This document shows positions 1,772 through 29,425 of a DNA stretch of 64,000 nt, piece by piece (the first letter of the stretch is position 1; the number at the start of each line of letters is the position of its first letter). The notes beneath the pieces are model-generated. The model searched no databases, was not told the DNA's origin, and worked only from the letters and a program-made list of their open reading frames with translations. The position numbers and the translations under genes are program-made. This DNA comes from Escherichia phage vB_EcoM-P3322, in the sequence record PV191315.1; one strand, written 5' to 3'.

Positions 1772-2650
1772 ATGTTTGTAAAATCTTTTAAATCCGCTCT
1801 GCCTATGGTTGTTGGTGACAATGCTTCTGTAGCATCCCTTAACAGCATTACAGATATTCCTCTGGAATTTGTAACAGCAGAAGGCTCCCAGTCACACACT
1901 ATTGGTCTTGTTCGTTTCGAAGATGACTCTAAATTTGTAAAAGAGTTCTCAGATCTTGAACTGCTTAATGTAGGTCAATCTGTGAAGAAGGTAGATAAAA
2001 AGAAAGTTAAACGTATTCTGAATGAACGTCTAGAAGAAATGCGTCAGGACATGGAGAGCGAAGGTAAAGAGTTTTATGTCGATAAAGAAGTAGTCAAAGC
2101 AATGAAGGAAGATATTGAATTTGCACTATTGCCTGAAACAGAACCTGAAGATTTCTTTAACTATGTTGTCTTGGATAAAACTACGAATCTTCTTTATGTT
2201 CTTAATGGAAGTAAAAAGGTCGCAGAAGAGATTACTTCTTTCCTCCGTTCAGTTCTGGGGACTTTCCCTTCGGTAGGTTTTAGTGTGCATGAAGAAGCTA
2301 TTGTAAAAGGTTTTGGTGAATTGCTGGAGAATCACGAAGCAGATCGTATTACTCTCGGAAATTATATCAAAATGGAGGATAGCGAGGGCGTTGTTGTTTG
2401 GAGTAAAGAATCCCTATACGAGTCTAAAGCTGTCGAACTAAAAGAAGATGGTAAAGATGTTGTTGCAATCGGTCTTGAATATGACGGTGTTGTAGATTTT
2501 GTAGTGGATAAAGAGTTTAAACTTTCTAAACTACGTTTTCCGAAATATTTTGCAGACGAAGAAGGTAGTATTGAAGCTTCAGTCCTTCTGTGCTTCAATG
2601 AGATTCGAGGTCTGATGGAAGATTTAACCAAAGCAACAATCCTTAAATAA
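1772..2650 (+). CDS. rdgC: RdgC-like recombination-associated protein
   Basis: Strong RBS AGGAGG; ~290 aa; several blocks align by eye with E. coli RdgC (LLPE..D.T..L..V, KLS.LRF). Confidence 0.5.
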   Translation: MFVKSFKSALPMVVGDNASVASLNSITDIPLEFVTAEGSQSHTIGLVRFEDDSKFVKEFSDLELLNVGQSVKKVDKKKVKRILNERLEEMRQDMESEGKEFYVDKEVVKAMKEDIEFALLPETEPEDFFNYVVLDKTTNLLYVLNGSKKVAEEITSFLRSVLGTFPSVGFSVHEEAIVKGFGELLENHEADRITLGNYIKMEDSEGVVVWSKESLYESKAVELKEDGKDVVAIGLEYDGVVDFVVDKEFKLSKLRFPKYFADEEGSIEASVLLCFNEIRGLMEDLTKATILK

Positions 2651-2654
2651 GTTC

Positions 2655-2683
2655 TTGACTTGCGGGATTAGTTATGATATCAT
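2655..2683 (+). promoter_or_regulatory. sigma70-like promoter
   Basis: TTGACT-17nt-TATCAT upstream of 2723 gene. Confidence 0.45.
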
Positions 2684-2712
2684 GCCTACCTACTTAATGA
2701 GGTAGGCTTTTT
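2684..2712 (+). terminator. leader hairpin with T-run (terminator for rdgC-like gene or leader structure)
   Basis: gcctacc-tacttaatga-ggtaggc followed by ttttt. Confidence 0.45.
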
Positions 2713-2722
2713 AGGAGGCGTT

Positions 2723-2932
2723 ATGAAAAAGATTCTGACAGTCGTTCTTTTAGCTTTTAGTTTCACAGTAGCAGCAGGTCAAATTACTTTAATCTTGTCT
2801 GATTCTGAAGTTAATGGCAACACAAAATATTGCTACTATTCTAACGCTAACCAAGATGAAGTTATAGCAATCCCGAAAAGTCGTCAATGTCCGTATACTA
2901 AAACATTCTCAACAGAGGATGACGATGAATAA
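2723..2932 (+). CDS. small secreted protein (signal peptide)
   Basis: RBS AGGAGG; N-terminus MKKILTVVLLAFSFTVAAG is signal-peptide-like. Confidence 0.6.
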   Translation: MKKILTVVLLAFSFTVAAGQITLILSDSEVNGNTKYCYYSNANQDEVIAIPKSRQCPYTKTFSTEDDDE

Positions 2933-3373
2933 TTAGGGGGAAATATTAGCGGTTATATTTTAATTAAACCTGAAGATCTTCATTTATATGTCAACGAAGA
3001 AACAATAGCTGCAATTGATTATGATCAGATCGCTTTCCAAGCAGCGTCTGCATTAGAGAAAAGAACAATCATTGCGAAGCACATACCTTCAGGTGCTCAA
3101 AAGGAATTCAAAAATAAGACAGAGTTTTGGGGTAAAAGCAAGACTAAAATTGGAGGTTGGCTAGGAGATACAAATGCAGAAAGAGCCTCCAAAAACAAAC
3201 GTCCCTTCACAAAGGAAGAGTTCGAAATCATTGATAAGCAATACCCGCCAGAAGATATCGGACACACCTTCCAAGCAGCTAAAACAAAAGTCTTAGGTAT
3301 TCTAAAACATCTACGTTTAGAAAAATATTGCGGAGTTATTGGCGTAGGAAAAACTTTCAGACACGCCTTCAAA

Positions 3374-4063
3374 ATGCCTGTAGAATATAAATCTGAACGA
3401 TTAGATATCAAACCACTTCAGCTTTCAGAAACCAAAGATTATCTTGTGGAGTTCCACAATGGTGATGTTGTTACTGTAATAGAGGCTGATGATGAGTTAG
3501 AGAAGTATGGTTTCCAAGGTTATAAAGATTATAAAAGGACGGGTAAATTTTCTTATATTGTAGTGTCTATAGATAAAGATAGTTTACATACTCCTAGTAT
3601 CCTTTTTAATTTCTACAAAGAGGATGGAGTATTTAAAAATCCAGATATAATTCTTATTGACGAGTCTATTGGCGACATATGGATCGTAGATAAAGGTAAA
3701 AAGAAAGAAGTTAAAGGTTGGGGAAGTTATTGGTTAGCCTATCAGATGCTAATGGGAGATAAAACAGATAGTATCCGACCTTATCAAGATTTTGATATTA
3801 AGTTTGGAGATATTACTTGTTTTAATCTTCTTTCAGCTTGTAAAACTCAAGCAGAGCTTTTCCAAACAGTTAAAGATACTTACTACTCGTGGTTCCCAGA
3901 TGGTGTTAATTTTACTTCTTGGGATGGAGAAGAAGTCCATATGACAACAGATGAATGGATAGAAACAATTTTCCAGTTGGTATACATGAAACGCTGGGAT
4001 AACGACGATACAACATTTGAGAGTATGCTTCAGTCATACATCTCACAACAGGAGGCAGAGTGA
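3374..4063 (+). CDS. hypothetical protein (possible nuclease); reading frame is open upstream to 2933 without ATG/GTG/TTG
   Basis: Track ORF from first ATG; same frame is stop-free for 147 codons upstream (see findings). Confidence 0.55.
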   Translation: MPVEYKSERLDIKPLQLSETKDYLVEFHNGDVVTVIEADDELEKYGFQGYKDYKRTGKFSYIVVSIDKDSLHTPSILFNFYKEDGVFKNPDIILIDESIGDIWIVDKGKKKEVKGWGSYWLAYQMLMGDKTDSIRPYQDFDIKFGDITCFNLLSACKTQAELFQTVKDTYYSWFPDGVNFTSWDGEEVHMTTDEWIETIFQLVYMKRWDNDDTTFESMLQSYISQQEAE

Positions 4064-24060: not shown

Positions 24061-24329
24061 CAAGTTTTGAAAGTAACTTCGTTACCGCTTGGGAAGCTTG
24101 GGATGAAATGGGTGTTGGGGAACTTTATTTTTACAATGTAACACTACGCCCAGAATATGCTTACCTGGTACCAGAAGGAACAGTTCAAATTGGCATGTAT
24201 TTGTCTTCTCAAGACGGTGTTGTTCAATTTGAGTTTTATTCTAACACAACGGACAACGAATTTACATACCGCGCATTTCATGTCAACATGTCTTTAGGAG
24301 AGGAGAAATTTTATGACGACCAAGTTTAA
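24039..24329 (+). CDS. hypothetical protein
   Basis: RBS GAGGAGG. Confidence 0.5.
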   Translation: MAEFGSVTSFESNFVTAWEAWDEMGVGELYFYNVTLRPEYAYLVPEGTVQIGMYLSSQDGVVQFEFYSNTTDNEFTYRAFHVNMSLGEEKFYDDQV

Positions 24330-24510
24330 AACAGTAGAAGAAGCCGTAAAAGCAGCTTATGAGGCTTTAGCGGAAGCAGAGCAGTTAGCAGACGAGACTG
24401 GTGAAGGTTTCAGTTTCTCCCCTGAATATGGGATGGGTGGTTATTATGATCCAGAAGATGAAAATGAGAATACTGGAACAAATTGGCATCCATCTTCTTT
24501 AAGTTGTTAA
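24313..24510 (+). CDS. small acidic protein, C-terminal W-x-SS-x-C motif family
   Basis: RBS GGAGAGGAG; C-terminus NWHPSSLSC. Confidence 0.5.
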   Translation: MTTKFKTVEEAVKAAYEALAEAEQLADETGEGFSFSPEYGMGGYYDPEDENENTGTNWHPSSLSC

Positions 24511-24521
24511 TAGGAGGTAAA

Positions 24522-24791
24522 GTGGGAATCGAAGATATCAAAGGTTATAAACCGCATACCGATGACAAAATTGGTAAAGTGAATGCTATTAAAGATGCTG
24601 AAGTTCGATTAGGATTAATCTTTGATGCTCTAATGTCTGAATTGTGGGCTGAACTGGATGATTGTGAAGATTTGGAAGAGTCTACCAATATATCCACCCG
24701 CCTTGACCAAATTTCAATAGCAAAGACTAAGTTGAAAGAAGCTTCTATGTGGGCCTGTCGTTCCGTTTTCCAACCAGAGGAGAAATACTAA
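24522..24791 (+). CDS. hypothetical protein
   Basis: GTG 24522 after TAGGAGG; track start 24483 lacks RBS. Confidence 0.45.
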   Translation: MGIEDIKGYKPHTDDKIGKVNAIKDAEVRLGLIFDALMSELWAELDDCEDLEESTNISTRLDQISIAKTKLKEASMWACRSVFQPEEKY

Positions 24792-25009
24792 TGAGTTATC
24801 GTAATGTTGAAGAATTAACTGAAAAAGCCCAAGCTATTATGGCTTTGGTGGACGAACTTACAAAAGAAGCTGAAGATGCTGGTTTTGGTCTTAGTTTAGA
24901 AGATGACGCAATCTGTTTTGAAGATTGGCAATCCTCTTCTTGTTATGGTGAAGGTGATGATGGTTTCGTTGTTAATTCTCAAGGCGTTTGGCACAGTAGT
25001 AGCTGTTAA
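24791..25009 (+). CDS. small acidic protein, C-terminal W-x-SS-x-C motif family
   Basis: RBS AGAGGAG; C-terminus GVWHSSSC. Confidence 0.5.
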   Translation: MSYRNVEELTEKAQAIMALVDELTKEAEDAGFGLSLEDDAICFEDWQSSSCYGEGDDGFVVNSQGVWHSSSC

Positions 25010-25018
25010 GGAGAGATT

Positions 25019-25291
25019 GTGGAGTCTGAAGGCGAACTGCTGATAAAAAAGAAAGTTAAAGAGATGGAACAAGCACAAAGAAAGTTTCGTAAGGAAATTG
25101 AAGAACTTTGTGAACAGTTTCAGGAACAAGCTTGGATAGGTGACTACGGTAACGGAGAAACTTATTACCCTACAGGAACGCCAGCCGCAGATCACTATAT
25201 TGATTTCATTTGTGAAGATTATGGTGTAGAGTTGGATGAAAATGGTTTAACCACAAGAGGTGTTTGGATCTCTTCTTCCTCAATGTGTTAG
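25019..25291 (+). CDS. small acidic protein, C-terminal W-x-SS-x-C motif family
   Basis: RBS AAGGAGAG; C-terminus GVWISSSSMC. Confidence 0.5.
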   Translation: MESEGELLIKKKVKEMEQAQRKFRKEIEELCEQFQEQAWIGDYGNGETYYPTGTPAADHYIDFICEDYGVELDENGLTTRGVWISSSSMC

Positions 25292-25299
25292 TAAATAAT

Positions 25300-25322
25300 A
25301 ACCCGCTTCGGCGGGTTTTTTA
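25300..25322 (+). terminator. rho-independent terminator
   Basis: aacccgc-ttcg-gcgggtt then tttttt. Confidence 0.7.
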
Positions 25323-25351
25323 TTGACAGGAATCTGGAAGCTTGATAAACT
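25323..25351 (+). promoter_or_regulatory. sigma70-like promoter
   Basis: TTGACA-17nt-TAAACT. Confidence 0.6.
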
Positions 25352-25381: not shown

Positions 25382-26323
25382 ATGGTGTTAATTGGTAGCC
25401 GTGCATTACAAATTCATGCTATGGACATGGGAAAAGACTTGTATCGCCCTTGTGTAGATTTAGATTACCTGTGTACAGAACAAGAGTGGGAAGAATTATC
25501 AAAAATGTTCTCTCAAGACGAGTTTGTTGAACTTGTAGAACGTAAAGGGAACAAAGGCCATGTCAAAATGATAGCTGGTGCACATTTGGAATACGATATT
25601 GCTTCTCAAGGAGATAGCACAGAAGCTTTGATTAGTTATTGTGAAGATTCTGATGATGTTCGTCGAACTTACGCTGGACATGTTGTTGCTCCTTTAGATG
25701 TGCTCTACCTTCTTAAAATGAGTCATCGTTTTAAAAAGGATAGTCCTCACTTCTTTAAAACTATGAAAGATATTCATTTCATGCGGTCACTGGGCGCAAA
25801 GATCCCAGAAAATCTTAAGAGTATTTATGAGTTGCGTGAGAAAGAAACATACACTTACTCTCATCCTAACTTAAACGTAAAAAGTAAAGAGTTCTTTAAA
25901 GGTGACGAGGTTCCGTATGTTTATGATCATGATTCTATCCATGAAGCAATCGCGTTAATGGATGCTCCAGCATATAAATCTTATATGAAAGATGGAAGTG
26001 AAGTTATGACCAGCAAAGAAAAGTTTTTTGCTCAACCAAAACATGTGCGCCTGTTAGGTGTTTATGAAGAAGCGTGTGTTTTGGCTTTGGAACGTTCACA
26101 AATTCCTTTCGGTGGAGAGATCGGAGGTCCAACCCCTAAGCAAAGTTTTATAATGGCTTTATCTAAAGTCTGCACATCCATCACTAGTGGTTGGTTTAGG
26201 GAATATGCTTGGGAAAACTTTTATGTTGTTATTAAGCTATATGAAAACATGGGCGAAAACGACTATGTTGAACGTTTTAAAGCTAATCAACATGTAGTAA
26301 AGCCTTTTGAAGGAGGTTATTAA
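25382..26323 (+). CDS. hypothetical protein (possible Pol-beta-type nucleotidyltransferase fold)
   Basis: RBS AGAGGAG; N-terminal IGSRA...DLD pattern, weak. Confidence 0.55.
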   Translation: MVLIGSRALQIHAMDMGKDLYRPCVDLDYLCTEQEWEELSKMFSQDEFVELVERKGNKGHVKMIAGAHLEYDIASQGDSTEALISYCEDSDDVRRTYAGHVVAPLDVLYLLKMSHRFKKDSPHFFKTMKDIHFMRSLGAKIPENLKSIYELREKETYTYSHPNLNVKSKEFFKGDEVPYVYDHDSIHEAIALMDAPAYKSYMKDGSEVMTSKEKFFAQPKHVRLLGVYEEACVLALERSQIPFGGEIGGPTPKQSFIMALSKVCTSITSGWFREYAWENFYVVIKLYENMGENDYVERFKANQHVVKPFEGGY

Positions 26324-26324
26324 T

Positions 26325-26720
26325 ATGTGTGGATATCTTTCAGAAAGTTATTTCAAAGTGACGCATGAGGATTTAGAAAAAGCACGATTGAAACTGACAG
26401 CTATTATTGAATACTCTAATACTGTTGAACACAGATTAAAGACTACTAAAGTATCTGTTCCTTGTTGGTTAGGTTTACGGCATAAAATAATGTCTCAACA
26501 TGACCATGTTGTTCGAGAGATGCATGGTTGGTGTTGGTTTCACGATGTGGCTCTGCATTTTGGTTATATTACAGAAGAAGAGCATAGATTCTGTGAACTA
26601 ACATATCGTATTCCAACCCTTCACGATTTAGATTTGTGGAAGAAAGCAAACGAGATTTTTCTTACAGAAAGTGATTGGCGTAAAGTTATGGCTTGTCTTG
26701 AATGGAGGGGTAATGAGTAA
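26325..26720 (+). CDS. hypothetical protein
   Basis: ATG 26325 after GAAGGAGG. Confidence 0.5.
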   Translation: MCGYLSESYFKVTHEDLEKARLKLTAIIEYSNTVEHRLKTTKVSVPCWLGLRHKIMSQHDHVVREMHGWCWFHDVALHFGYITEEEHRFCELTYRIPTLHDLDLWKKANEIFLTESDWRKVMACLEWRGNE

Positions 26721-27396
26721 AACAGTTTTGTCTATGTTTGACGGATCTGGGATCATGGTGTTACGTTATGCCGAAGCAGGTCACAAGTGTTTTTGTGTAA
26801 ACGCTGATGAAGGGGATCACGGTAAATACGAGGTTAGGATGGAGCACCCAAACATAACCTATGTGAATGCCTGGATAGATTCTACATTCAACCCTGAAGA
26901 TCATGGGATACCTAAACCCGATATTATTTTTGGATTTCCACCTTGCACTATGTTAGCAGGTAGTGGTAGCAAACACGAACGTAGCACAGAGGAATTAGAT
27001 GAAGCTTTAGCTAATATTCGTGTAGTGGAAGCTTTGGGTAACAAATATAATGTTCCTTGGATGATTGAAAACCCAGTAGGTAAACTTTCAACCTTATGGC
27101 GTAAACCCGATTTTTACTTTGATCCTTATGAGTATGGTGGGTATTTGTTTGAAGAGGAAGGAAGCTTTCATCCTAAAATGCCTACCCGTGATGGGTATAC
27201 AAAGAAAACTTGTATTTGGCACGGCAATGGTTTTGTTCAACCAGTGAAGAAACCAGTAGATCATATAGGCTGCTTCTGGGGTTGGAAAAGCTTAGGCGGA
27301 GCTAGTGCAAAAACAAAACAACTTAGATCCCTAACCGCACGTGGTTTTGCTCGTGCCGTGTTTTTGTCTAACAATCTTCTAGATAAGGAGAAATAA
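26713..27396 (+). CDS. C5-methyltransferase-like protein (short, PPCT in place of PCQ)
   Basis: FDGSG (motif I-like), FGFPPCT (motif IV-like), ENPVG (motif VI-like); ATG 26713 after GGAGGGG. Confidence 0.5.
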   Translation: MSKTVLSMFDGSGIMVLRYAEAGHKCFCVNADEGDHGKYEVRMEHPNITYVNAWIDSTFNPEDHGIPKPDIIFGFPPCTMLAGSGSKHERSTEELDEALANIRVVEALGNKYNVPWMIENPVGKLSTLWRKPDFYFDPYEYGGYLFEEEGSFHPKMPTRDGYTKKTCIWHGNGFVQPVKKPVDHIGCFWGWKSLGGASAKTKQLRSLTARGFARAVFLSNNLLDKEK

Positions 27397-28049
27397 TGTC
27401 AAATTCAAAACCAATAGTTGCTTATCAAGTAGATCGTAATGATGGTGAAGGAAGTGTTATTATTTTCAGTACACACGGTCTTGAGGCTCGTCGAAAAGGT
27501 GCATATCGTTTAGAATGTGAGTTTGAAGACTGCACAAGCCACCGTGTCAAACAATTCGATCAATATGCTGATAAAGGCTTCGTCCCTATCAAAGCCTTAC
27601 TGGAAGATGGTTGGTGGGTATATTCTGCTTTTGATTACTCAAGACTGGAGGAGTCAGCCTCGTGCGCCTCCGAGATCGAATATGATGATTACTATGACAC
27701 TCTCTACCTTCCAGAATGGCTTGTCTTTTCTCCTGATGAAAGAAGTGTCTGGAAAACGTGGGAAGAAATGGAGAGACATGCATATAGCATCAATGAAGCT
27801 TTAGATCGTAAAGCTTGGTTTATTGAGGCAGTAAAGGCGGCATACCCCCAATTCTCATTCTGTGATTTCACTGGTGGCCCAGGATACATTACACATACAG
27901 CCTCTTTTGAGTTCCCTGGTTCACGTTATAAGGGTAATGTTTATTGGGACTGGGATGAAAATAAACAACCTTCGGCTCAAGACTTCCGTTGCTATGTTTG
28001 TCAAGGCGATCAAGAAGCCCTTGACAAATACCTACAAAGTCTGGTATAG
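27396..28049 (+). CDS. hypothetical protein
   Basis: RBS AAGGAG; ATG overlaps stop. Confidence 0.55.
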   Translation: MSNSKPIVAYQVDRNDGEGSVIIFSTHGLEARRKGAYRLECEFEDCTSHRVKQFDQYADKGFVPIKALLEDGWWVYSAFDYSRLEESASCASEIEYDDYYDTLYLPEWLVFSPDERSVWKTWEEMERHAYSINEALDRKAWFIEAVKAAYPQFSFCDFTGGPGYITHTASFEFPGSRYKGNVYWDWDENKQPSAQDFRCYVCQGDQEALDKYLQSLV

Positions 28050-28065
28050 TGCCAGCATCTGAACA

Positions 28066-28096
28066 AAGCCTCCTGTTTCAGGGGGCTTTTCTTTTA
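28066..28096 (+). terminator. stem-loop terminator
   Basis: agcctcc-tgtttca-gggggct then ttttctttt. Confidence 0.6.
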
Positions 28097-28107: not shown

Positions 28108-28593
28108 ATGTTTCAAGTAAATGTCAATGTGCATAATAGTTACTCTGATTGTGAAACGTGTGGCTATAATTCATCTAATGTTATTCGTATTAGTGGCGAT
28201 TTAGGAGAAGCTTCTTTTGGAGAAGAAGCAAGTTGCTTTAGTGGTATGGATGCAGAATGGAATGATATTGCACATTGGTTAGTGAGCAAACTAAAAGAAA
28301 AAGAGAAACCATTTCCTACTCTGCTTGATCGTTCTCTTGTGGAAGATGCAGGTAAAGCATATGCAGACTATGCGTATGCAGACGGGAAATATTTGGAAGA
28401 TGATAAGGCTAACCATTTGCTTTATGTTTACTATGAAGCTGAATCTGCCTACGATAATTATTACAGCATGTCTAACATCCTACGTCTGTTTGCAGAGTTT
28501 GATATTTATTTCGAAGTAGAATTTTCAGAAGATGATACTTACGAGTACAATTCTTATGATCCATTTGAGGAGGAAGAATGCCAAGACGAGTGA
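28108..28593 (+). CDS. hypothetical acidic protein
   Basis: RBS AGGAGGG. Confidence 0.55.
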   Translation: MFQVNVNVHNSYSDCETCGYNSSNVIRISGDLGEASFGEEASCFSGMDAEWNDIAHWLVSKLKEKEKPFPTLLDRSLVEDAGKAYADYAYADGKYLEDDKANHLLYVYYEAESAYDNYYSMSNILRLFAEFDIYFEVEFSEDDTYEYNSYDPFEEEECQDE

Positions 28594-29393
28594 TTTTTGT
28601 AAGCGGTGCAGGTTTAAGTGCAGACAGTGGGATTCGAACATTTAGAACAGACACAGATAGTGGTCGTGCTTTATGGGAAGAATATGATTTAGAAGAGGTC
28701 TGCGATATTGGAGCTTTCCAGGCAGGTTATCGTGTTAGAACATCTCCAGATCTTCCAGTGGTCGGTGGTGTAGACGAGAACGGTATGGATTTGTATGCCA
28801 AAACACACGAATTTTATAACAAAAGACGTGTTGAGCTTAAAGATGTACAACCTAATGCTGCACATATTCAAATAGCAAAGTGGTTTAAGGAATATCCTAA
28901 CCAAATAGTAAACTTGACAACAAACGTTGATGATCTACTAGAGCGAGCAGGTGTAGACAGAGATTCTGTTATTCACGTACACGGATATCTTCCTGAAGTA
29001 GTTTACCGTATGCATCCTGGAGATTACAAAACACTGGTAGATATTGGTTACAATAGTATAAACATAGATGATTATAACTGGGTGAAGCCTAATGTTGTAT
29101 TTTTTGGTGAGGCTGCACCTTTGTATGCAGATATGGCTCACTTGTTTGATACTTTGACCATGCAAGATTTGGTTGTTGTAGTGGGATGTTCAAACCAAGT
29201 TATCAATTTTAATTGGGAATTGTTCCCTGCACTTAGTATGGGTACAAAAATGATTGTTGTTAACCCAGGAATTAATTACGAAGAAACTCTTCTTTACGAA
29301 GATAGAGGAGTCTTTGTTTACCGAGAAAAAGCTGCAACAGCCTTCAGTAATGAAGGTTTCATTAAAATGGTCGAAGACCACTTAAACAAATAA
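28578..29393 (+). CDS. Sir2-family (sirtuin-like) NAD-binding protein
   Basis: GAGLSADSGIRTFR and TTNVDDLLERAG...HVHG resemble Sir2 motifs; RBS GAGGAGGAAG. Confidence 0.7.
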   Translation: MPRRVIFVSGAGLSADSGIRTFRTDTDSGRALWEEYDLEEVCDIGAFQAGYRVRTSPDLPVVGGVDENGMDLYAKTHEFYNKRRVELKDVQPNAAHIQIAKWFKEYPNQIVNLTTNVDDLLERAGVDRDSVIHVHGYLPEVVYRMHPGDYKTLVDIGYNSINIDDYNWVKPNVVFFGEAAPLYADMAHLFDTLTMQDLVVVVGCSNQVINFNWELFPALSMGTKMIVVNPGINYEETLLYEDRGVFVYREKAATAFSNEGFIKMVEDHLNK

Positions 29394-29401
29394 ACCACTC
29401 A

Positions 29402-29425
29402 AGGGGCTTCGGCCCCTTTCTTATT
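29402..29425 (+). terminator. rho-independent terminator
   Basis: aggggc-ttcg-gcccct then tttcttatt. Confidence 0.7.

Follow-up and report, generated by a model that had tools for sequence, protein, structure and literature searches.

The gene at positions 26713 to 27396 (+ strand) of a 64,000-nucleotide stretch of Escherichia phage vB_EcoM-P3322 (sequence record PV191315.1; the whole stretch is referred to here as the window) very likely encodes an active, S-adenosylmethionine (AdoMet)-dependent DNA cytosine-C5 methyltransferase from phrog_757, a family of compact 'Dcm-like' phage enzymes, as judged from sequence comparison, a structural model and analogy with a tested relative. The reading frame was first noticed in an inspection of the letters alone (the sequence-only reading), and both the frame and the order of the three motifs named there, FDGSG, FGFPPCT and ENPVG, hold; the translation comprises 227 amino acids (aa) followed by a TAA stop codon, one residue more than the 226 counted then. 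For the window copy itself the evidence covers the fold, the family membership and the conservation of the catalytic residues, and for a homologue with 50% identity it covers the formation of 5-methylcytosine (5mC). The protein is a real but ordinary, already annotated member of a large and widespread phage family with one tested relative. A 4.2-kb stretch around the gene shares 98.9% identity with genomes of the genus Phapecoctavirus (phAPEC8-like Escherichia coli myoviruses, among them ESCO13, anhysbys and Schickermooser), and GenBank already holds proteins with 100% identity, labelled 'Dcm', 'DNA methyltransferase', 'putative site-specific DNA methylase' or 'hypothetical protein'.

The experimental evidence for the family comes from phage K42 of the Drexlerviridae, in which the mutants escaping retron Ec86 all map to a 711-bp dcm gene (Wang et al., Cell Rep 43:114857, 2024; bioRxiv 10.1101/2023.08.16.553469). 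K42 Dcm expressed alone switches on retron Ec86, and LC-MS (liquid chromatography coupled to mass spectrometry) against a standard revealed high 5mC on the multicopy single-stranded DNA (msDNA) of the retron in the presence of K42 Dcm but low 5mC with the C82A/E128A/K175A/K176A mutant and with the empty vector (bioRxiv 10.1101/2023.08.16.553469). The retron defence was lost when either C of the CCTGG site in the stem-loop of the msDNA was altered (bioRxiv 10.1101/2023.08.16.553469). The mutated residues had been chosen by superposition of an AlphaFold model on DNMT3A (bioRxiv 10.1101/2023.08.16.553469), which was also the best structural match in the present analysis, found independently of the K42 study.

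The K42 genome is 95.4% identical to that of phage KarlJaspers (Bas06) (bioRxiv 10.1101/2023.08.16.553469), whose gene bas06_0055, the counterpart of K42 dcm, is exactly 711 bp long and encodes 236 aa with FDGSG, FPPCT (Cys at 82), ENP (Glu at 128) and KK at 175-176. The window protein shares 50% identity with bas06_0055 over the full length (E 1e-71), and the K42 residues C82, E128, K175 and K176 align with C78, E119, K164 and K165. Both proteins are compact (236 versus 227 aa) and have FDGSG, the Asn of motif II, FPPCT, ENPVG, KK and RSLTxRGFARAVF in common; they differ in that the K42 and KarlJaspers genes belong to siphoviruses of the Drexlerviridae and lie beside other genes, whereas the window copy belongs to a myovirus of the Stephanstirmvirinae. 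Since bas06_0055 has the same features and its K42 counterpart makes 5mC, the PPCT sequence, the lack of a target-recognition domain (TRD) and the short length all occur in an active enzyme. By analogy the window copy would be active as well.

An AlphaFold2 model built with 34 homologues reached a mean predicted local distance difference test score of 87.3 and a predicted template modelling score of 0.87, and has the predicted fold of a C5-methyltransferase catalytic domain. In a Foldseek search of the PDB the top matches were solely the catalytic domains of DNMT3A and DNMT3B (E about 3e-8, probability 1.00), followed by generic Rossmann methyltransferases and RNA 5-methylcytosine (m5C) enzymes with only about 115-140 residues aligned. 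Placement in an unrelated Rossmann family, which the sequence-only reading had named as a result that would speak against it, did not occur. Among the viral models of BFVD the closest were proteins of the same length named DNA-cytosine methylase. The compact fold also matches two much longer BFVD entries from uncultured Caudovirales, A0A6J5SE15 and A0A6J5NPY6 (1,397 and 1,126 aa; 25-27% identity), the larger of which is named 'Helicase/UvrB, N-terminal' while the other is uncharacterised.

The DNMT3 enzymes (e.g. 6u8p and 6f57) resemble the window protein in two respects: no Gln follows the catalytic Cys, the PDB sequence of DNMT3A reading SPCNDLS where the family consensus is FPPCTDLA, and the target-recognition region is unusually small. 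They are unlike it in being eukaryotic, in sharing only 17-19% identity and in a domain of about 285 aa. DNMT3A and DNMT3B keep an RxR motif as well as motifs IX and X, recognise CpG and act as a DNMT3L-assisted oligomer.

Residue conservation was counted in an alignment of 74 diverse full-length homologues with 31-58% identity to the window protein. Motif I, the AdoMet-binding loop FDGSG (26737..26751; residues 9-13), aligns with FSGAG of M.HaeIII and with FDGMSGG of the enzyme of phage alia; G13 is kept in 60 of the 74 members, while the first Gly (G11) is not conserved across the family, where Tyr, Arg, Lys and Phe prevail, but is kept in the clade of the window enzyme. Motif IV, FGFPPCT (26929..26949; residues 73-79), contains the catalytic Cys78 (codon 26944-26946), which aligns with the PC of M.HaeIII, Dnmt2 and the alia enzyme. 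Motif VI, ENPVG (27067..27081; residues 119-123), provides Glu119 and aligns with ENV of the alia enzyme. Eight residues are invariant in all 74 members (C78, G85, E119, P121, P138, Y162, W169 and P177), and F75, P76, N120, K164, T166, R205, S206, T208, P209, G211, F212 and A215 are conserved in at least 90%; N120 occurs in 71 members, K164 and T166 in 73 each, and Lys or Arg at position 165 in 46. With this conservation the three motif matches are not accidental.

That a Thr (Thr79) sits where the Gln of PCQ is expected had been seen correctly. A loss or alteration of the chemistry on this account is not supported: Thr follows the catalytic Cys in 66 of the 74 members, DNMT3A and DNMT3B have PCN, and the active K42 Dcm has the same FPPCT, so that the absent Gln is no meaningful anomaly. 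The residue preceding the catalytic Cys differs among close relatives (Pro, Asp, Ser or Gln).

The enterobacterial-phage clade, to which the window protein and the active K42 enzyme belong, combines Asn in motif II with Gly at the first FxGxG position, and most of the distant relatives have Asp and a bulky Tyr, Arg, Lys or Phe at these positions; the AdoMet pocket may differ between subfamilies of this compact family.

The C-terminal part contains a motif VIII-like strand, YTKKTCIW (27196..27219; residues 162-169), whose equivalence to QxRxR would follow from the sequence pattern only, a short variable segment of 34 aa in the place of the TRD (27220..27321; residues 170-203), and a conserved motif IX/X-like block, LRSLTARGFARAVF (27322..27363; residues 204-217), which forms the last helix, modelled at residues 210-219.

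The window protein matches phrog_757, 'DNA methyltransferase', over residues 1-225 (E 1.8e-84). Relatives were found by tblastn in 1,487 phage records, both siphoviruses and myoviruses, from phages of Escherichia, Klebsiella, Salmonella, Shigella, Vibrio and others, and an exhaustive HMMER search, with clustering at 50% identity, delivered 965 clusters. Lengths among the 74 aligned members run from 202 to 258 aa (median 228), and the stretch from motif VIII to the C-terminal block has a median of 36 aa (range 28-48; 34 in the window protein). The small size is thus, from the sequence comparison, a property of the family and not of a truncation; a truncated gene was ruled out by this uniform length. 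The earlier remark that the protein is too short for a normal TRD was right, the shortness being a trait of the family and not of this gene.

Canonical PF00145 enzymes such as M.HhaI, M.HaeIII, E. coli Dcm and gp168 of phage alia agree with the window protein in fold and in motif order (I, IV, VI), but measure 324-329 aa or more and possess PCQ, QxRxR and GN motifs. Motif VIII and motif IX/X lie 103 aa apart in M.HhaI and 125 aa apart in the alia enzyme (canonical range 103-156), as opposed to 34 aa in the window protein, which has no normal TRD.

Justusliebigvirus phage alia (NC_052655) encodes a 329-aa canonical PF00145 enzyme (E 3.4e-43) with SPCQGFS, ENV, QNRQR and GN at 2394-3383 of the compared locus, in a slot between homologues of the 137-aa ORF (open reading frame) upstream of the window gene and of the gene downstream of it (neighbour 1, see below). 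The short compact enzyme is absent from that slot in alia. The occurrence of two non-orthologous C5-methyltransferases in one conserved slot suggests that its function is cytosine-C5 methylation. Compared with alia, the window shows a non-orthologous swap of the methyltransferase with retention of the downstream genes, neighbour 1, neighbour 2 and a Sir2-family gene.

Several observations weigh against the assignment as an active Dcm-like enzyme with a CCWGG site. In motif II the clade of the window enzyme has Asn (Asn30), as opposed to Asp in 70 of the 74 relatives. When YTKKTCIW is aligned by pattern with QKRERIYM of M.HhaI and QNRQRLYW of the alia enzyme, K164 takes the place of the first Arg of motif VIII and T166 that of the second, an apparent exchange of Arg for Thr at the latter position. 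Of motifs IX and X only one conserved counterpart is seen, the block RSLTxRGFARAV; in sequence it resembles motif IX (RKLHPRECARV in M.HhaI), but it ends up where motif X is found in canonical enzymes, with a median distance of 23 aa to the C-terminus. The window protein scored 11.6 bits (E 0.18) with Pfam PF00145, below the gathering cut-off of 22 and over motifs I-IV only, and a search of NCBIfam gave no match; across the family PF00145 reached E<0.01 in just 2 of the 74 members. Against the PDB sequences the family profile A1 gave no hits at E<=1, and profile A2 gave none of significance, the best being M.HaeIII (E 0.11) and Dnmt2 (E 0.32) over motifs I-IV only. In the literature on Phapecoctavirus no experiment on the methyltransferase gene of the phage or the genus was found.

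The remaining adverse points concern the site and the role. The assignment of CCWGG, which draws on the K42 msDNA mutants and on the EcoRII resistance of Klebsiella phage KP36, is a best guess by analogy. In MG1655 with the empty vector the msDNA had low 5mC and retron Ec86 was silent (bioRxiv 10.1101/2023.08.16.553469); MG1655 has been described elsewhere as having a CCWGG Dcm of its own. Low 5mC on msDNA and a silent retron in spite of the host Dcm imply that the site, strand or substrate preference of the phage enzyme may be another one, or that this enzyme may simply be more abundant. The EcoRII resistance of KP36 is confounded by the host Dcm and circumstantial, and in the Drexlerviridae the BASEL study saw no simple correspondence between the presence of these methyltransferase genes and resistance to restriction.

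Two hhalign comparisons were discarded: the matches of profile A2 to M.HhaI alone and to a 17-sequence M.HhaI-family profile (too narrow, 71-78% identity) extended over 28-42 columns and were spurious.

As an active Dcm-like methyltransferase the protein would follow the canonical C5-methyltransferase pathway: Cys78 would attack C6 of a flipped-out cytosine, Glu119 would protonate or hold N3/N4, the methyl group of AdoMet, held by the FDGSG loop, would pass to C5, and beta-elimination would free 5-methylcytosine. The protein would essentially represent the catalytic Rossmann-type domain, with a loop of about 34 aa (residues 170-203) in place of a TRD of at least 100 aa. The gene lies within a tightly packed block of genes on the same strand, and replicating phage DNA would be the most likely target. 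CCWGG-type sites would probably be methylated and cytosine-methylation-sensitive restriction probably blunted; as a side effect, retron Ec86-type defences could be triggered. Protection from restriction is the conventional role.

With respect to the site, Webervirus KP36 encodes a relative, gp74 (NC_029099, 47552-48244, minus strand), with 59% identity to the window protein (E 1e-97). KP36 DNA is fully resistant to EcoRII despite 155 CCWGG sites; the study of 2013 denied a cytosine methyltransferase in KP36 and credited the host Dcm (PMC3620542). By analogy gp74 is an equally good or better candidate for this resistance. The family of short methyltransferases was evidently overlooked in the KP36 paper (PMC3620542). 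CCWGG occurs 99 times in the window, whereas dinucleotide-preserving shuffles predict 61.7 +/- 8.3; this excess, the opposite of avoidance, is diagnostic neither of methylation nor of specificity. The BASEL paper, a Danish wastewater preprint and the Proxi-RIMS-seq2 survey contain no experimental data on the activity or the site of the gene.

Among the alternatives, the best surviving one accepts an active DNA m5C methyltransferase but holds that, having no real TRD, it differs from the host Dcm in specificity or substrate preference, for example by a shorter or degenerate site, by methylation of the outer C of CCWGG, or by favouring hairpin or single-stranded DNA. Such a difference is possible but doubtful. 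It fits the mere 34 aa (family median 36) in the place of the TRD and the loss of defence when either C of CCTGG is mutated, and the literature search found no genome-wide motif mapping; moreover, MG1655, described elsewhere as having its own CCWGG Dcm, kept the msDNA low in 5mC and retron Ec86 silent, and the phage enzyme methylated the msDNA. On the other hand, the CCTGG mutants of the msDNA and the complete EcoRII resistance of KP36 fit CCWGG, and the host Dcm could just lack the abundance or the speed to act on msDNA. Equally tentative is the proposal of a minimal, nearly TRD-less enzyme that would read its site through the catalytic loop, the loop region of about 36 aa or a DNMT3-like dimerisation, and whose specificity or substrate preference might differ from that of the host Dcm. 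If the site is indeed unconventional, this would explain why the Dcm of MG1655 fails to fire retron Ec86, unlike the phage enzyme, and m5C surveys based on PF00145 would systematically miss a family with members in about 1,500 phage genomes.

It is very improbable that the protein has the C5-methyltransferase fold but transfers another group from another cofactor, such as the carboxymethyl group of carboxy-S-adenosylmethionine (Cx-SAM) in the manner of CmoX, or has RNA or free nucleotides as its substrate. In favour of this, Cx-SAM is made by the E. coli host, the first Gly of motif I is not conserved, and a conserved Arg205 stands in the block at the position of motif X, comparable to Arg350 of CmoX. 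In CmoX of Synechococcus phage S-B43 (8yf3), Arg350, in place of Asn304 of M.HhaI, binds the carboxylate of Cx-SAM, and candidate CmoX enzymes are defined by SPPC plus an Arg at the motif X site and are typically encoded together with cmoA and an amide ligase. This signature appears not to be matched by the window protein, which has FPPC and in which, on the pattern only, Arg205 adjoins the position of the Asn in the CmoX/M.HhaI comparison and does not occupy it; the 8yf3 chain has 333 residues. A scan with Pfam and phrog profiles, confined to the six neighbouring ORFs, revealed no CmoA or ligase family, and the product of the tested K42 homologue was 5mC by LC-MS. Against an RNA substrate, RNA m5C methyltransferases score lower in the structure search and align over the Rossmann core only (about 135 residues). 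The known enzymes that modify deoxycytidine monophosphate have the thymidylate-synthase fold. A substrate at the level of deoxynucleoside monophosphates, one of the options of the sequence-only reading, was rejected, the fold being that of DNA C5-methyltransferases and the tested homologue methylating DNA.

Highly unlikely, too, is a complex in which the acidic neighbours at 27396..28049 and/or 28108..28593 supply target recognition or regulation. The stop codon of the methyltransferase and the ATG of neighbour 1 overlap as TAATG, and the order of methyltransferase slot, neighbour 1, neighbour 2 and Sir2 is conserved in Phapecoctavirus and Justusliebigvirus. However, neighbour 1 occurs in 148 and neighbour 2 in 128 phage records, nearly all of Phapecoctavirus or Justusliebigvirus, compared with 1,487 for the methyltransferase; in KarlJaspers and KP36 small genes unrelated to either lie beside dcm; in alia both follow a different, canonical methyltransferase with its own TRD; in Vibrio phage MAR and Xanthomonas phage phiXaf18, which encode distant homologues of neighbour 1, the 3 kb to each side of that homologue contain no annotated methyltransferase; neighbour 2 is set apart by a terminator and by a promoter-like site; and K42 Dcm is active when expressed alone. 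From these comparisons the association is lineage-specific synteny and not a partnership. Of the earlier suggestion concerning the neighbours, their acidity is borne out, but the functional link is not.

Least probable of all is a non-catalytic homologue, such as a pseudo-enzyme that binds DNA or regulates in the way of DNMT3L: the very short length, a Pfam score below the threshold and the altered motifs II, VIII and IX/X speak for it, but the strict constraint on the motif IV Cys and the motif VI Glu, both invariant in the 74 members, argues against it, the FDGSG loop is intact, and the 50%-identical homologue with the same motif variants is active in dependence on the equivalent residues. 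The sequence-only reading had left this choice open; its C5-methyltransferase-type protein without a normal TRD stands, and its non-catalytic option is not supported in view of the invariant Cys and Glu and the active homologue.

For the active Dcm-like methyltransferase three consequences follow. Pfam and NCBIfam miss the family, and methylome surveys based on PF00145, such as Proxi-RIMS-seq2, can overlook the enzyme. Retron Ec86-type defences may detect phages that encode the enzyme, a point of relevance when Phapecoctavirus phages are chosen for therapy. Of residual interest is sequence specificity in 227 aa with no recognition domain; active DNA C5-methyltransferases more compact than this family may be few, and the enzyme could serve as a minimal methyltransferase scaffold.

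The start of the gene at ATG 26713 is preceded at a distance of 2 bases by a Shine-Dalgarno-like GGAGGGG (26704..26710, + strand). This sequence is part of the 3' end of the preceding ORF (26307..26720; 137 aa), which shares 8 nucleotides with the methyltransferase. In sequence comparison the homologues begin at a Met equivalent to this ATG. The overlapping starts and stops around the gene are ordinary tight packing of phage genes.

Neighbour 1 (27396..28049, + strand; phrog_8514) encodes 217 aa with an isoelectric point (pI) of 4.6 and a net charge of -16. Neighbour 2 (28108..28593, + strand; phrog_9509) encodes 161 aa with a pI of 4.05 and a net charge of -27, and overlaps the start of the Sir2-like gene. 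Between the two lies a strong intrinsic-terminator-like hairpin with a T-run (28065..28089, + strand; stem of 11 pairs, 6 of them GC), which probably ends the transcription unit of the methyltransferase and neighbour 1; a promoter-like site with 11 of 12 positions matched is found just before it (28021-28050), and neighbour 2 is assigned on these signals to the next unit. The Sir2-family protein (28578-29393, + strand; PF02146, E 1.9e-22; phrog_2162) starts 16 nucleotides before the stop of neighbour 2, and the unit that contains it is seemingly bounded by the hairpin at 28065-28089 and a further terminator-like hairpin at 29401-29418.

Upstream, a gene for a 313-aa protein (25382-26323, + strand; DUF7277, E 7.6e-14; DUF7275, E 1e-75; phrog_2141) comes first behind a hairpin of terminator type (25300-25317) and a promoter-like site (25323-25351), and probably heads the transcription unit that holds the methyltransferase. 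Before it lie three small acidic ORFs on the + strand (24313-24510, 24749-25009 and 25019-25291; 65, 86 and 90 aa; pI 4.0-4.4), which match the C-terminal part of phrog_899 (E 1e-13, 3e-6 and 5e-14, respectively) and share a W-x-(P)SS(L/S)(S/M)C end, suggesting a local paralogous family.

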